Assembly: GCA_918797485.1 (NCBI GenBank)
Contig: CAKKNE010000006.1
Location: forward strand, 1,426,001-1,490,000
Source of the DNA: Pelagomonas calceolata
Taxonomy: Eukaryota
DNA length: 64,000 nt
Reading direction: 5' to 3'
The translations under genes were made by a program, and so were the position numbers. A model generated the notes under the pieces. That model searched no databases. It worked only from the letters and a program-made list of their open reading frames with translations, and had not been told where the DNA came from. The first letter of the stretch is position 1, and each line of letters starts with the position of its first letter. This document shows positions 41,014-48,024 of this stretch, in pieces.

Positions 41014-41085
41014 GCTCCTATGGCTCAGTGGTAGAGCATTTGTCTTGTAAACAAAAGGTCCTGAGTTCAATCCTCAGTGGGAGCT
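41014..41085 (+). tRNA. tRNA-Thr(TGT), intronless
   Basis: Complete cloverleaf GCTCCTA...CTTGTAA...TTCAATC...TGGGAGC-T followed by oligo-T. Confidence 0.97.
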
Positions 41086-41385: not shown

Positions 41386-42533
41386 ATGGCGGACCGCCCC
41401 CCCGGCGCGCCGCCGCCCATGCCTCCATCACAACATATCAGCCCCTCGCGGCGCGACGGCATGAGCGCGCACGACGAAAAACAAAGAAGACGAAAAACGT
41501 GCTTCTTCATCGACGAGTGCGGCGTGCGGCTGCAACTCCCGAAACTCCCGGTGATGACGGCGCAGTGCTTCTTCCACAAGTTCTTCGCGCGCGAGTCTTT
41601 TAGGAGACACGACCGCTTCGTGGTGGCGCAAGCTTGCTTATTCCTCGCGGCGAAGGTCGAGGAGTCGGCCGTGTCTCTACGATCGTTGGTGCGAGAGTGC
41701 CACGGCGTGCGCTACGCCGGGAAGAGCCGGGCGCCCCTTGATGAATCAAGTGAGAGGGACGTGAAGCGAGCTGTGGTGATGGCGGAGCGCGCGGTGCTCT
41801 ACGCGCGCCGCGGCGTCTCCTTTCGCCTTTCGCTCCGCGCCGCGCGGTGACCGTCGCATCGATGGCGCGTCGCGGCGACGGCGTGATGGTTCTACACTAC
41901 CTTCACGCCATCGACGCGGCGGGCCGGTGGCGTGCCGCGCGCCGAGGGACCGCGCGACGGCGTCGAGAGGGGGGAGAGGAACACACACACATCCAAGAGA
42001 GAATAAAACAGGACGCGCGACGCCCTTGATCAATCTAGGCCATCGGCTTTGATGTGTGCGTCGAGAACCCCCTGCTGGCCTTCATTGACCTCGTCAATAA
42101 GCTGCGGGCGGGCGACGTGCTTTCAGAAGATCTGAAGCAGCCGTTCTCGCAAGTGGGCATCAACTTCATCTCCGATTCATATCGGACGGCGCTGTGCCTC
42201 GAGTTCCCGCCGCAAAAAATCGCGGCGGCGTGTGCTTTTTTGACGGTGGTGTTCCTGCGGGCGCTGCCGGATGATCGGCCGCGGACGGCGGCTTTATATG
42301 GCGCGCTCGCGATCTCCGAGAGGAGTTTGAGGAGCATCTGCACGCAGATGGCCGAGTTATATGTGGAGAACAAGAAGTGCGCGCGGCTCTTAAGGGACCT
42401 GGCGGAGATGGGCCACGTTCCTGCCGAATTGGTGAGGCCTGCCCCCAGGCCGCCGGTGCCTCCTTCAGATTCCGTGGCCGGCGTGACGCCGTCGCCGTCG
42501 GTGCTGTCTTCTTCTTCCTCCGCTGGCCCATGA
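41386..42533 (+). CDS. Transcriptional cyclin (cyclin K/T-like), with a GC-AG intron 41803-42038
   Basis: FFHKFF, ACLFLAAKVEE, E..VLY|AIGFD reconstituted by splicing, LCLEFPP.KIAAAC. Confidence 0.88.
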
Positions 42534-43000
42534 GTGGTCGGGGTAAAATTAATAGTTGTTTTCATTTTCTATCCCGCGCTTGCGCGGCAGCTCCCCCACG
42601 CCATCAACGCGACGTCGCCCCCGTGGTATCGTCTGATCGATGGCGTTCTACCCCCGGCCCTTCTTCCCCCCCCCCCCGCATGCCAGCCCCATAAGCGATT
42701 GTTGCTAGACTCAGCCTATCTCTGGGATATTCCCAGATCAGCCTCGATAGCGTCAACTAGCGAAAAAAAATGACCTCCCAAATTCAGGATTCACCCTAGT
42801 CGTTCGCCGCGCCCAAATATTTCAGAGTAGCGGCCCGGGAACATACCCTCATGCCTCCCGGAACACACCGCCCCGCGGCGACATTCGCGGATGAATCTTA
42901 TGACTCGCCAAAATACACCAGCGATTGACGCCGTCGTCTACCGTCCGGATAGCCCATTATATCAACTCCAGCCCAGTTTTCATACACACTCGACGGAACC

Positions 43001-43656
43001 GGAGCCGACAACGCGCGCTCGGAGGGCGGGAAAAGAATTATACTAGACAACTCCCGAGTTTATGTTCGTTTCCTTCCGTTTGTTAGTGGTAGAGTCCATC
43101 TAGCCCGCCTCAACATTTACTGAGCCCAGTATCTTGATCCGTATGAGCCGCGGGATTCGGCGACTTTGGTACCCCGCGTTTACAGAAAGATGGGTAAATA
43201 AGTAGGATCCGCGAGTATCAGCGACGCCACTATCCAGATGGACCATAACGCCGTTGTTCTATTCACGATCGACCGACTTGCCCGTTCTCCGCGGACGACG
43301 GTGCGTACGCGGGCCCCCGGAAAAGCCCCAGACCCGTGAGTTGTGAAATAAATTTGCGTTTCAGGCGGTTCGGTTGCGGGACGGGCCATCTGACCGGGCT
43401 GAGCGTCTACTACATTGCTTCGAGACCCCGAGATGTTCCCCGCGCCTCGGCCATCTCGCGAGCCCACGATCTCGCTTATATGGGCTGGAGAGCTGGATAT
43501 GCGACCATCAGCCCGTGTACCTTCACCATAGACCATAACGCGATCATTTGTTTCATGACCGACGGACTTACGCGAGGTCCAGATCAAGATGTTCACGTCC
43601 CGGGCGTGGGCAGCCAAAAGTACCCTTCTTATAATGTAGATGTCACATACTTGTAA
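43001..43656 (+). pseudogene. Decayed coding sequence with two tandem ~97-aa homologous domains of unknown family
   Basis: Gapless alignment of 43061-43290 with 43351-43580 (offset 290) shows many synonymous differences; stops and a frameshift are present. Confidence 0.5.
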
Positions 43657-44288
43657 TTGACTATCGATGGGGTAGTATAGTGTCCAACGATACCGCTATA
43701 GCGACTACTGGGGGCCCTCGGGTAATTGCGTATTTGACGGTGACGGGGTGCTATCGGGCCCAAATTATTTACTTTTTTTGGATGCAGATCGGCCCTCGGA
43801 CTTACTCTGGGATAGGTCTGGGGTCGGGTGGTCGCCGACACCGCATGCGCCGCTGCTTGGGGCTCTCCAGAGAGCTCTGGATCGAAAACTTTGGGGGATC
43901 ATGATAGGTCTCTGCAAACTGCTGGGGACCTGTACTGATATGTATCCACCGATGGAAGCGCCCGCGCATGCGGTGTAGGCGATTGCGCACGTCTAGTATC
44001 GACCCTAGGCGACTCCCGGGAGGCCTCCGGGCCACGAATCGACAGGATTCCACCGGCGCGGCCGACCACTTTTGGCGGCCCGTCGGCGCCGCGAATTAAA
44101 TTTTTTTTTTCGCCACCCAGTAAGTGTCGTATCGATCGCCCCGGACGACAAACGGCCCAAACGATATTCAAACAACTCCAGGGCGCATCTCACACTTTTT
44201 ACCCCGGGATCGTGAACGCGGCGCGCGCCGACAGACGTTCGAAACCCCAGCACGCCGTCGCCGCGACCCCCAAGATAACTAGAGATAA

Positions 44289-45767
44289 TTACATGAGCGC
44301 ACAGGAGCTCTGGTTGGCCGCCGCCTTCTGGACTTGATCCAAACCCTTCTCCGCGTGCGCGTGGGACCGCTCGACGAGTTCCCCGATTTTGTCGACGTCG
44401 TCCTGCTGCTTGTCGACCAATGTCGCGAGATCCCTAAAAATCTCGTTGACCTTGTGCACGTCCGCGTTGATGTTGCGCAGCTCGGCCTCGCGCTCCCTTA
44501 CGAGAGCCTCGTCGATGTCCTCGTCCTGCATCGCCACCTGTGTGTTTTTCGCGTGTTTTTTTTCGCGCGTGATGCCATCGACGCGACGTCATCGACGCGT
44601 CCTCGCCGCGCCGGCGGCCCGGCCGAAGCCGCCTCTTCCGTGCCGACGCGCGGCGACGCGCGGCGACGCGGCCGCCCCCCCTTTACGCCGTCGAGGCAGC
44701 GGGTGCACCGCGTCCGCGTGTCCGCTCGACGGCGTGGAGGCGACACGGACGAGTATCTCGGCCCCTCTCGCACGCCGTCGACGCGTCAGGTCGAGCGAAG
44801 CCACCTCGAGTCTCGCGCCGGTCGCCGCACCTGGAGCTGGACGCGCTGCTCGCCCACGAGGAGGTCGACGTCGCCCGGCGGCGGTCGCGGCGGCGACCGG
44901 TCGCGGCCCGCCGCGGCGCCGACCGGTGGGGGGCGCGCCGGCGGCACCGGCGGCGCCGCGGCGACGCGGCCGAGGCGCCGCGTCGCCTGGCGGATCCGGT
45001 CCTCGACGCGCTCGAAGTCCGTGCGGAGGCGCGCCTGTGTTGTGTTTGTCTTTTACGGTACGGCGATCGACGTCCTCTCGGTGTGGCGATTGTTTCCTCT
45101 CGTCGGCGTCGGCAGCGCCGGCGGTGCTCGACGGACGGCGGCGCCGTCGCGCCGGCGTTCGCCGCACCAGCGGCTCTCACGCCAGCCGTGGACGTAGACC
45201 GCCTCTCCAGGGAGCCGCGCGAGCCGACACGACGAGAGTGCTATACGCGCGACCGCGTCTCTCTCTCTCCTACGGTTTAGCCCACGGTACCTCCACCTTG
45301 GCCCCAGCCGACGTTACCTTCACATGAACGCAATGATGGCGTCGAGGAGACCACAAGTGTCCACCTCAAGCCATCGCGCAGACGACGGGAATGAGCGGCG
45401 GCCGTGGCGGATCTCGCGCCCCCTCCACGCCGTCGACGCGACGTAAAAACACAAAAGGTACCACGCCGGTGGGAACGTGCGCGGCACGTCTCCGCGGGGC
45501 CGTCGCGGGCGGGCTGTTCTCGGCGTCCCGCAGCAATTCCGTGAGGTGCCGCCGCGTCGCCCGCGTGAGGTCCTCGACGACGCCGCGCTGGACCGCGACC
45601 TGCTGGCGCAGCTCGGCGTCGGCGCCGGCCGCGCCCGCGGAGTCGACCATGTCGCAGAGCCGTTCGAGCAGGGCCACGTTCTGGCGCAGCTGGCGCAAGG
45701 CGTTGGCCGCGCGGTCCGTCGTGGCGTCCGGTTGCGTCGTCGCGCGCTCGGCGGCGGCGAAACTCAT
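44289..45767 (-). CDS. Syntaxin-like Qa-SNARE lacking a transmembrane anchor, ends in CaaX (exons 45767-45477, 45034-44831, 44537-44289)
   Basis: Habc-like helices, RLRTDF, SNARE motif ERE..L..I..DV..VNEIFRDLATLV..Q...VD.I; ends SSCALM*. Confidence 0.8.
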
Positions 45768-45989: not shown

Positions 45990-46140
45990 GGTTCTATAGT
46001 CACGGATGTCTAGGTCAAGACACCGCTATCTTAGTTGGTTAGACGAGCCGTAAAAGGCTCGAGCACTGACTTCAGGTTCTGATTCTGACAGCCTGGGTTC
46101 GAAGGAGTTTTAAAACGCTCTGAAATTCCCAGTAGAACCT
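45990..46140 (+). tRNA. tRNA-Gln(CTG) with three BHB introns (46002-46031, 46043-46067, 46104-46126)
   Basis: Removing the introns gives a 73-nt cloverleaf GGTTCTA TA GTCT AGTTGGTTA GGAC T TCAGG TTCTGAT TCTGA CAGC CTGGG TTCGAAT CCCAG TAGAACC T; oligo-T terminator follows. Confidence 0.9.
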
Positions 46141-46752
46141 CTCTCTTTTTTTTGCTTTTTTGGGCTCCTGGAGACACGTTCTTTCGATTGACGGAGTTTG
46201 AGGACAATCGGCGTACGTCGTTTACCCCGTGAAACACGCGTGGGTACCAGAATCAAGGAAGATTGCACTATACTACCGCGGCCGCCGCGGGCGTCTCGCG
46301 CGATGGCGCCTCGTCCGACGACGCGAGCTCCAGTGGCGCGGAAGCCGCGCCGGTGTTGGGGAGAGGGCGCGTGCGATGCATAGGGAAATTGCAGCGCGGC
46401 GACGGCTCGACCGCCGCGGGCGCGTCCTCGCGTGCGAGCTCCGCCATTTCAAGTACACGCCACTACTTTAGGCGGCGTAAAAGGCTTGTTTTGGGCCCCT
46501 TGGCTTGGTAACGCGCCGCGCTGGTTCGCAGTCAGGAAGGCACAAGGCACAAAAATGGCCCTGGGGGCAGCCCTACCGTACAACCCACCGGTTTTTGGTT
46601 AGCCCTCGCGTGTGGGTGCTCTCGTAGCTGCCCCCTGATGGTCGCGCGCGCCGATGCACAAACTTGTATGTCGAGGGGGAGCGAGCCGCAAAGTCCGCCA
46701 TACCCCCCCAAAGCGAAGGGTGCGCACGGCGATGCAAAAAACAAAAAAAAAA

Positions 46753-46849
46753 TGGAGAATAGGGGATTCGAACCCATGACCTATCGCATGCGAAGCGATC
46801 GCTCTACCAACTCACTAGCGTTCTCTAGCTAGACCTGAGCTAATTCCCC
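46753..46849 (-). tRNA. tRNA-Ala(CGC) with a ~25-nt D-loop intron (46809-46833)
   Basis: Acceptor GGGGAAT/ATTCTCC with G3:U70, anticodon arm ATCGC-TTCGCAT-GCGAT, T loop TTCGAAT, oligo-T terminator; the insert forms a relaxed BHB. Confidence 0.9.
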
Positions 46850-47165
46850 AGTTTTGTACTTGTGCCACTTATCGGTGCCGAAAAGAGGACACATGCGTGG
46901 GAGAGATGGTGATTTTTGGTTCTTAAAATGTTTATCGCGGAAACCCTATTTTTTTTATTTGCCTTTTTTAAAACCGATTTGACGTGCAGCCCGGACCAAA
47001 GATCTGCTTGAAGGCCCGAAAAACTCAACAAGCCGAAGAAGGCAGCCCGCAGCCACACCTCACAAATCCGTCAGCAAAACGAGCGCCGTCAAGCGGAGCA
47101 AAACGCAAAAAACACATATAGCTGCAGGCCGCTCTTGCGCGTCCGGACGCGTGGGCGGGAGAACG

Positions 47166-48024
47166 ATGGACGACGAGCGCCAATCCCGCAAGCTGCGCCA
47201 GCTCCAAGCCGAGATGATCGCGCTGGCCAACGACCGAGAAAAGGCGACGTCGGCCGACGAATGCCGCGCCATCGACGCGAAGCTGCGCGCGCTCGCCGAG
47301 CGGGGCGCGGCGATGAAGCACGTCAAAATGTCTCCGGAGGAGAAGCCCTGCGCCGCGTGCAAAAGGCCGACGGCCCGGACGGTCGTCTCGGAAGGCCGGG
47401 CGCACCGGTTCTGTTCGGTCGAGTGCGCGTCTTCCCGCGTCCGAATCAAGGCGTGTCGCCTCGATGGCGTCGAGGTGGACGTATCGTTTTGACGCCGTCG
47501 GAGAGTGAGAGACACGGTTGCGTTGTGCTGATGCGCGTCGATGGCGTACTGGTGTTGTACTGATGCGGTGGAGTACGCCGTCGGTACCCGCCAGTACGCC
47601 ATCGACGGATGGAAGCTCGCGAGCGGGGGCGGGTCGGAACAAGAGTACGCGCGACGCAGGCCAGCGCCGCGGCTGGAGCCAGACGGACGGGAGCGCGGGC
47701 GAGGCGCCGCCGCCGCCGCGGAAGCCGATCGGCGCGCTCACGCTCGACGCGAAGAAGGACGAACAAGAGGACCGCGACACGATCGTGGCCTGCGGCGCGG
47801 CGCGGCGGCGGCGGCAGCGACGGCCCGACGTCGTGCTCGACTCGACGCCGCGGCGGGTCGCGCCGCCGCCGGACGGGACTTTGCGCGTGGCGGGCGCGCC
47901 GCAGAAGCTCCTGCCCGCGCCGCCGCCGCCGCCCGAGGCGTTGCTGGACGGGTTCGAGAGCGACGAGGTCGTCGAGGACTCCCGGACCGGTGGTGGTGGC
48001 GGGTGGGGGCGGGGGTTTCTGTGA
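47166..48024 (+). CDS. Hypothetical protein with coiled coil and CxxC...FCSxxC zinc finger; intron structure uncertain
   Basis: CAAC...RFCSVEC, then an intron-like segment with the repeat motif, then a Pro-rich open frame. Confidence 0.4.

Follow-up and report, generated by a model that had tools for sequence, protein, structure and literature searches.

The tRNA-Ala(CGC) gene investigated in this study is interrupted in its D-loop by a 25-nucleotide insert, which we consider very probably a genuine intron of the BHB type whose splicing would leave the loop AGGGGTA. The gene itself is likely a functional nuclear gene, and contigs of close relatives, most of them with 90-96% identity in the flanking gene, indicate that its locus alternates between intron-bearing and circularly permuted forms. 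We favour, although with reservation, the view that a position-independent, archaeal-style tRNA splicing operates in a pelagophyte nucleus, where the Ala and the neighbouring Gln loci would at present be gaining and losing BHB introns and turning permuted.

The window and its tRNA genes

The window, by which we refer to the entire stretch of 64,000 nucleotides that was analysed, consists of gene-dense eukaryotic DNA with 57-70% G+C, and its protein-domain content comprises HSF, HMG, kinesin, Myb and PAS-domain genes. The beta chain of succinyl-CoA ligase encoded in it shares 80% identity with a cluster containing Aureococcus anophagefferens, 74% with Chrysophaeum and 70% with Aureoumbra, and we therefore assign the window to the nuclear DNA of a pelagophyte (stramenopile). 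The same stretch occurs in marine metagenome runs from several studies.

A scan of all 45 T-run regions of the window, with BHB excision applied, returned tRNA calls in four: three correspond to Thr, Gln and Ala, and the fourth is a junk call that lacks a valid anticodon. The initial annotation had described two of three tRNA genes as disrupted and about 600 bp apart; these are Gln and Ala, separated by 613 nucleotides. A scan for permuted tRNA genes, which recovers just two of the four complete permuted genes of the control loci, found none in the window. The heavy use of GCG, from which the plausibility of a functional gene had been argued, is equally evident, as it is the commonest codon in 13 open reading frames of the window (410 of 6422). 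The third gene is intronless and serves as comparison:

41014-41085, plus strand: tRNA-Thr(TGT), intronless (ARAGORN/Rfam)

A probable D-loop intron in tRNA-Ala(CGC)

The Ala gene resides on the minus strand (46849-46753) and, as had been stated, is otherwise sound, with a G3:U70 pair, one mismatch in the T-stem (U50/C64) and an oligo-T stretch behind it. It contains an acceptor stem of 7 bp, the D-stem GCTC/GAGC and an anticodon stem of 5 bp, and its D-loop, including the insert, extends over 32 nucleotides. ARAGORN and Rfam catch the gene solely in truncated or mis-started form (46754-46825; 29.7 bits). In the following list of its parts and throughout the text, L numbers denote loci on metagenome contigs.

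46834-46849, minus strand: 5' exon, positions 1-16 (acceptor 5' strand, D-stem 5' strand, A14-G15-G16), from the sequence
46836-46839, minus strand: exon strand CTCA of the central helix (positions 11-14), invariant in a four-allele alignment
46833-46835, minus strand: 5' three-base bulge GG/T, with the cut predicted by the BHB rule after the second base
46809-46833, minus strand: D-loop intron at 16/17, 25 nt, relaxed BHB (HBh'), the sole D-arm-restoring excision with a 4/4 central helix, with borders equal to the difference to L025
46815-46832, minus strand: inner helix CTAGC/GCTAG with an 8-nt loop, 20 of 20 cells paired in four alleles
46811-46814, minus strand: intron strand TGAG of the central helix, 15 of 16 cells paired in four alleles
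46808-46810, minus strand: 3' splice site TT/G, without outer helix behind it (motif analysis, folding)
46753-46808, minus strand: 3' exon, positions 18-73, anticodon CGC at 46792-46790 (ARAGORN, Rfam, sequence)
46743-46752, minus strand: oligo-T (T10), presumed polymerase III terminator

A GTGTC(C/T)T motif is located closely upstream of the Ala transcription unit in four of seven copies checked (window, at about 46886-46892 on the minus strand, L003, L031 and L001). As the A box is interrupted by the intron, this motif might serve as an upstream promoter element.

All elements that had initially been annotated are present (CTCA/TGAG helix, GGT bulge and CTAGC/GCTAG inner helix), and the removal of 46809-46833 that had been predicted from them is backed by the insert-free loop of L025 and by introns at 15/16 in other relatives, all of which yield AGGGGTA. 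When excisions were enumerated such that the D-stem is kept and a remaining loop of 7-11 nucleotides has A at both ends and GG inside, one of the 27 that restore the D-arm, 46809-46833, showed a BHB central helix with all four pairs. Other motifs with four of four pairs in the Ala gene (14 of 15) were rejected, as their excision does not restore the cloverleaf. A motif as good as that of the window appeared in 0.12% of 5000 shuffles of the intron letters (p = 0.0012). If each site is cut behind its second base, a normal cloverleaf is predicted to result, and the predicted product, which combines the body of the window gene with the loop of L025, is called tRNA-Ala(CGC) by ARAGORN.

The motif is of the relaxed HBh' rather than the strict hBHBh' form, since an outer helix is absent, with no pairs compared to five in the third intron of the Gln gene. 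The folding energy of the Ala intron is unexceptional (z = -1.1 to -1.6), and its 3' splice site is paired and not bulged in the fold of minimum energy. Features of other intron classes were not encountered: the anticodon arm is uninterrupted and the insert located at 16/17, unlike the canonical eukaryotic intron at 37/38, the length of 25 nt and the lack of a matching Rfam family do not correspond to group I or II introns, and the window gene is not circularly permuted.

In an alignment of four alleles (window, L011, L002 and L030), 35 of 36 helix cells pair, compared to 21-57% in slid controls, a result of modest weight given that this covariation set consists of four related sequences and that the window copy served to draw the structure. 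In the same alignment, four of the five pairs of the inner helix show double changes, whereas three of the four pairs of the central helix never vary.

The convergent tRNA-Gln(CTG) gene

The second disrupted gene of the window, which was missed entirely by ARAGORN and Rfam, contains three non-canonical introns:

45990-46140, plus strand: tRNA-Gln(CTG), convergent with Ala, its spliced form matching the intron-free halves of L003 and L039
46002-46031, plus strand: intron 1 at 12/13, central helix 4/4 (BHB scoring)
46043-46067, plus strand: intron 2 at 22/23, central helix 3/4, inner helix 6 bp (BHB scoring)
46104-46126, plus strand: intron 3 at 59/60, strict BHB with outer helix, central helix 4/4 (BHB scoring)
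46146-46153, plus strand: oligo-T (T8), presumed terminator

If spliced by the BHB rule, the gene is identical in 73 of 73 nucleotides to the intron-free halves. Contigs of the RNA runs X15 and X20, from different studies, carry the compensatory pair G46047A and C46058T in the inner helix of intron 2, with no exon changes among those listed.

Relatives of the Ala locus

Our view of allele variation is based on 40 loci with 42 matches, obtained by scanning metagenome contigs for the Ala anticodon arm, with relatives represented by short contigs of 1-6.6 kb. Eleven matches in ten loci are syntenic with the window, including the identical L001 and L024, and all eleven Ala copies are disrupted in some way. 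The 31 non-syntenic matches were excluded from intron counts; none carries a D-arm insert, and seven, from unplaced organisms, show an insert-free D-loop AGGGGTA or AGGGGCA. Viral contigs and prokaryote genomes gave no matches.

In the flank at 47050-47480, identity to the window amounts to 90-96% in L003, L011, L030 and L039 and to 82% in L025, which aligns in pieces, and L001 represents a more distant lineage (79% in an ABC1 kinase). Across syntenic relatives the exons are nearly invariant, introns and flanks have diverged, and the T-stem mismatch U50/C64 is common to all close orthologues. A tree of six sequences from 430 nt of flank, in which L025 and L030 align in pieces and from which L031 and L002 were excluded as too short, did not resolve the order of events.

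The D-loop varies widely among these loci. In L025 there is no insert, and the loop reads AGGGGTA. The copy on the minus strand of L031 contains the same intron as the window, and L011 and L002 contain variant 16/17 introns that retain both helices and the GT..AG ends. Different-looking introns at 15/16 are found in L001/L024, L027 and L039, each with a single register, a central helix of four of four pairs and AGGGGTA as product. The insert of L030 (811-870) is a variant of 27 nt that is damaged at its 3' end, and its central helix scores 0/4 at 16/17 and, judged by eye, 3/4 at 15/16. This insert may be in decay, or its splicing may leave another loop. A loop that is shared by the 15/16 intron of L001 and the 16/17 intron of L002 (p = 0.002, one of 36 comparisons) hints that the D-loop intron might be old and shifted by one base.

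Altered architectures of the Ala and Gln loci

Across both genes and the relatives, introns occupy positions 2/3, 12/13, 15/16, 16/17, 22/23, 30/31, 55/56, 57/58 and 59/60, and none of the intron and junction positions seen in the Ala and Gln loci corresponds to the 37/38 site. In the Ala genes of L002, L011, L025, L030 and L039, base 2 of the acceptor stem is followed by an insert of 27 nt, where the last four bases of the leader form the central helix (3/4 or 4/4) adjoined by an inner helix of 7 bp, and an intron at 57/58 is additionally present in L002, L025, L030 and L039. The Gln gene of L039 has introns at 12/13, 22/23 (with a central helix of 2/4) and 30/31, and its T-loop intron is absent. 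Among 22 distinct inserts, a number which includes homologous copies of about 12 families, three or more of the four central-helix pairs are present in 20, and 19 combine this with an inner helix of 3 bp or more, compared to 2-10% in shuffles.

Other copies are circularly permuted, with the 3' half located upstream of its 5' counterpart and termini that form a BHB. This concerns the Ala(CGC) genes of L003 (1575-1700, minus strand) and L031 (215-360, plus strand), with junctions 14/15 and 15/16 and a spacer of 8 nt, and the Gln(CTG) genes of L003 (385-530, plus strand) and L001 (1540-1660, minus strand)/L024, where junction 34/35 lies inside the anticodon. Two of these genes also contain an intron, at 59/60 in the permuted Ala of L031 and at 55/56 in the permuted Gln of L003, and a permuted Gln is partly visible at the contig ends of L025 and L030. 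Each of the four permuted junctions that were scored shows three or four of the four central-helix pairs, together with a leader/trailer helix of 5-13 bp. A descent of the permuted leader from the D-loop intron was considered and dropped, as the best match (L003 leader and L039 intron, p = 0.013 among 24 comparisons) is not significant. On the loci of relatives, ARAGORN with its intron option and a low threshold returned mostly junk.

The arrangement of the genes differs as well. L031 contains two convergent Ala copies, the permuted one and a second of window type; one of the two is found at the place of the window's Gln, and this contig may be chimeric. In L001/L024 the permuted Gln directly follows Ala on the same strand before one terminator, and the same holds for Thr in L027; such Ala-Gln and Ala-Thr pairs could possibly give rise to dicistronic precursors.

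RNA data

Six of seven RNA runs share words with the stretch, and four of the seven were analysed as contigs. Spliced joints were not found in these four, although contigs cannot show their absence, and the matches listed for them include no contig of the source organism over the Ala intron. The deep coverage that X15, X16 and X20 show over the 3' exon of Ala was assigned to the intronless tRNA-Ala of another organism because its loose ends differ, and it thus provides no support. In X19, a cyclic contig spans 46030-46154, the region of the Gln precursor, with introns 2 and 3 retained. Its junction is ambiguous by 3 nt, a range that covers the 3' cut predicted for Gln intron 1 (46032). This agreement was discounted, as it concerns one contig with an estimated chance of about 1/6.

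Discussion

In the mechanism that we propose, the Ala gene would be transcribed by polymerase III up to the oligo-T stretch, and exon positions 11-14 would pair with the TGAG of the intron. By analogy to archaea and C. merolae, the tRNA splicing endonuclease is predicted to read the local BHB motif and not the distance from the anticodon, and it would cut after the second base of each three-base site, at 46834/46833 and 46809/46808. Ligation, end trimming and the addition of CCA would then complete a tRNA with the D-loop AGGGGTA. The same relaxed enzyme might also handle the three Gln introns and the permuted forms of relatives, the latter presumably via a circle, and a cut at the 2/3 intron would be needed while the leader is still attached. 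If any BHB module can be removed cleanly, such modules are probably near neutral, which would allow fast gain and loss at the locus. Their clean presence or absence at exact exon borders suggests, as a speculation, RNA-templated gene conversion.

Several other explanations of our data have to be weighed. It is improbable, yet the best surviving of these, that the window gene is real and the varied architectures of its relatives are products of mis-assembly. The short metagenome contigs on which all relatives are found and the two convergent copies in L031 would fit such an origin. However, every architecture comes with coherent intron or leader/trailer helices that are not part of the tRNA, and most forms recur, with the 2/3 insert in five loci, the 57/58 intron in four, permuted Ala in two variants and permuted Gln in L003, L001/L024 and partly in L025 and L030.

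About as improbable, and placed by us marginally below mis-assembly, is the possibility that the Ala gene is a pseudogene or silent copy that was broken by insertion of a small hairpin, with an intronless copy elsewhere decoding GCG. Short D- and T-arm insertions in eukaryotic tRNA genes are mostly taken as pseudogenes, according to one source (PMC4090602), and no transcript of the window allele was found among the matches listed for the four RNA runs. The T-stem mismatch, which could likewise be read as a sign of decay, is however shared by all close orthologues. Moreover, conservation of the exons goes together with covariation in the intron, the BHB geometry is followed by inserts at many positions, and an undisrupted copy is found in none of the 11 syntenic cases, all of which argues against a broken gene.

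We regard it as more doubtful still that a 24-nt segment with GT..AG ends (46811-46834) is removed instead, by a spliceosome-like or ruler-type process, to leave the D-loop AGTTGGTA. Its product is also accepted by ARAGORN as tRNA-Ala(CGC), the GT..AG ends are kept in L011 and L002, and within the 16/17 family this register yields plausible loops, AGTTGGTA in the window and AGATGGTA in L011 and L002. The choice of the AGGGGTA register is thus a consequence of L025, the 15/16 introns and the permuted genes rather than of the 16/17 family alone. In all three equivalent registers of the 24-nt removal, the central helix has only one to two of four pairs, the intron-free orthologous loop of L025 differs from its product, and GT..AG ends, confined to this register of the 16/17 family, are found in none of the three Gln introns and none of the three 15/16 introns. 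A segment of 24 nt in a polymerase III transcript would in addition be an unusual spliceosomal substrate. Finally, the retention of the insert in a tRNA with an enlarged D-loop hairpin, to which its folding into a hairpin of its own and the lack of a spliced form in the contigs of the four RNA runs might point, is the least credible of all, as, in the fold of minimum energy, the TGAG of the intron competes for the D-stem strand, and the inserts at 2/3, 12/13, 22/23 and 30/31 and the permuted forms at the same locus require cutting and joining.

The BHB-type intron thus favoured can be compared with systems described in the parts of the cited sources that were accessible to us. Eukaryotic tRNA splicing is taught as being fixed at 37/38, with red algae and nucleomorph remnants as exceptions and permuted genes in some green algae (PMC13578239). 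Non-canonical introns are described for archaea, C. merolae, Chondrus, nucleomorphs and, in one case at 27/28, Ostreococcus, and permuted genes for C. merolae, prasinophytes, Auxenochlorella, the Bigelowiella nucleomorph and Thermofilum (PMC13578239, 10.1101/2021.12.21.473619, PMC3728597, PMC3978253, PMC4090602, PMC8450103, PMC12636532, PMC11237714). Splicing was shown by RT-PCR for non-canonical tRNA introns of C. merolae (PMC3728597) and for D- and T-loop introns of Chondrus (10.1101/2021.12.21.473619).

A close likeness is to the red alga C. merolae, where nuclear genes contain one to three short introns in the D- and T-arm with strict and relaxed BHB motifs, and where genes can be both permuted and intron-bearing, as found here for the plus-strand Ala of L031 and the Gln of L003. 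Our case differs in residing in a stramenopile nucleus and in a single locus whose architecture varies among near relatives. The permuted junctions given for C. merolae are 20/21, 37/38, 50/51 and 59/60 (with types I-V in a table note) and those found here 14/15, 15/16 and 34/35, so that these junctions and the acceptor-stem position 2/3 provisionally appear new compared to that alga. Chondrus crispus (PlantRNA 2.0, 10.1101/2021.12.21.473619) similarly has non-canonical introns, located in genes classified as pseudogenes by standard finders, but at two fixed positions, D-loop 20/21 and T-loop 58/59, in contrast to at least nine positions in two genes, combined with permutation, in our data. 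The introns of the Guillardia theta nucleomorph and the permuted tRNAs of prasinophytes and the Bigelowiella nucleomorph are further algal examples of non-canonical or permuted genes (PMC4090602, PMC3978253), although these are nucleomorph genes or mostly have 37/38 junctions that suit the ordinary eukaryotic endonuclease, whereas the genes described here are host-nuclear and none is disrupted at 37/38. In Thermoproteales, where non-canonical tRNA introns transpose, BHB modules likewise occur at many positions (22/23, 30/31 and 59/60 are listed), with up to three per gene and recent gains (PMC4090602). There the host is an archaeon instead of a eukaryote, and the most 5' position named is 3/4, compared to 2/3 in the relatives, where the leader serves as central helix (PMC4090602).

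On sequence grounds, the Ala intron displays the features of the relaxed class and would work like the introns of C. merolae and Thermoproteales, and what appears new is the lineage, provisionally the positions, and the switching of architecture among close relatives. In the literature searched, outside of which most subscription papers fall, we found no report of non-canonical introns or permuted tRNA genes in a stramenopile, and in the accessible part of a 2026 review 'Aureococcus' and 'Pelago' do not occur. A stramenopile nucleus with such freedom would point to a deeper ancestry, a gift of the red-algal endosymbiont or a repeated relaxation of the endonuclease. If true, the locus would for the first time show at population scale how tRNA genes become disrupted and permuted. 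The origin of permuted tRNA genes has been called unresolved in one source (PMC3978253), and published models invoke either tandem duplication or the reverse transcription of a circular precursor. Since intron-bearing and permuted versions of one locus are found in close relatives, of which public ocean data contain an abundance, these models become testable. Standard gene finders miss or mis-call such genes, and the tRNA sets of pelagophytes are therefore probably under-annotated.

Additional features of the window and related loci

A lower-GC region of the window without Pfam match (42570-44100), located between a cyclin and a syntaxin-like gene, is missing from the syntenic L001/L024 and possibly constitutes a repeat or the remnant of a mobile element. 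Palindromic CCATCGACGCG-like repeats, which may be introner-like, recur at 41800-42040, 44550-44790 and 45400-45450 in apparent spliceosomal introns. The length of the spacer between Gln and Ala is not constant among relatives, L025 and L030 having a much shorter one; in L003 (610-1310) and L031 (480-1150), about 700 nt between the tRNA genes are largely missing from the window and contain an apparent short open reading frame. L002, L011, L025, L030 and L039 have in common a short leader hairpin that resembles D-arm sequence. In L008 (267) and L037 (2161), a tRNA-Ala(CGC) of an unplaced organism is cut off after the T-arm by unrelated sequence, and its allele in L036 is intact.
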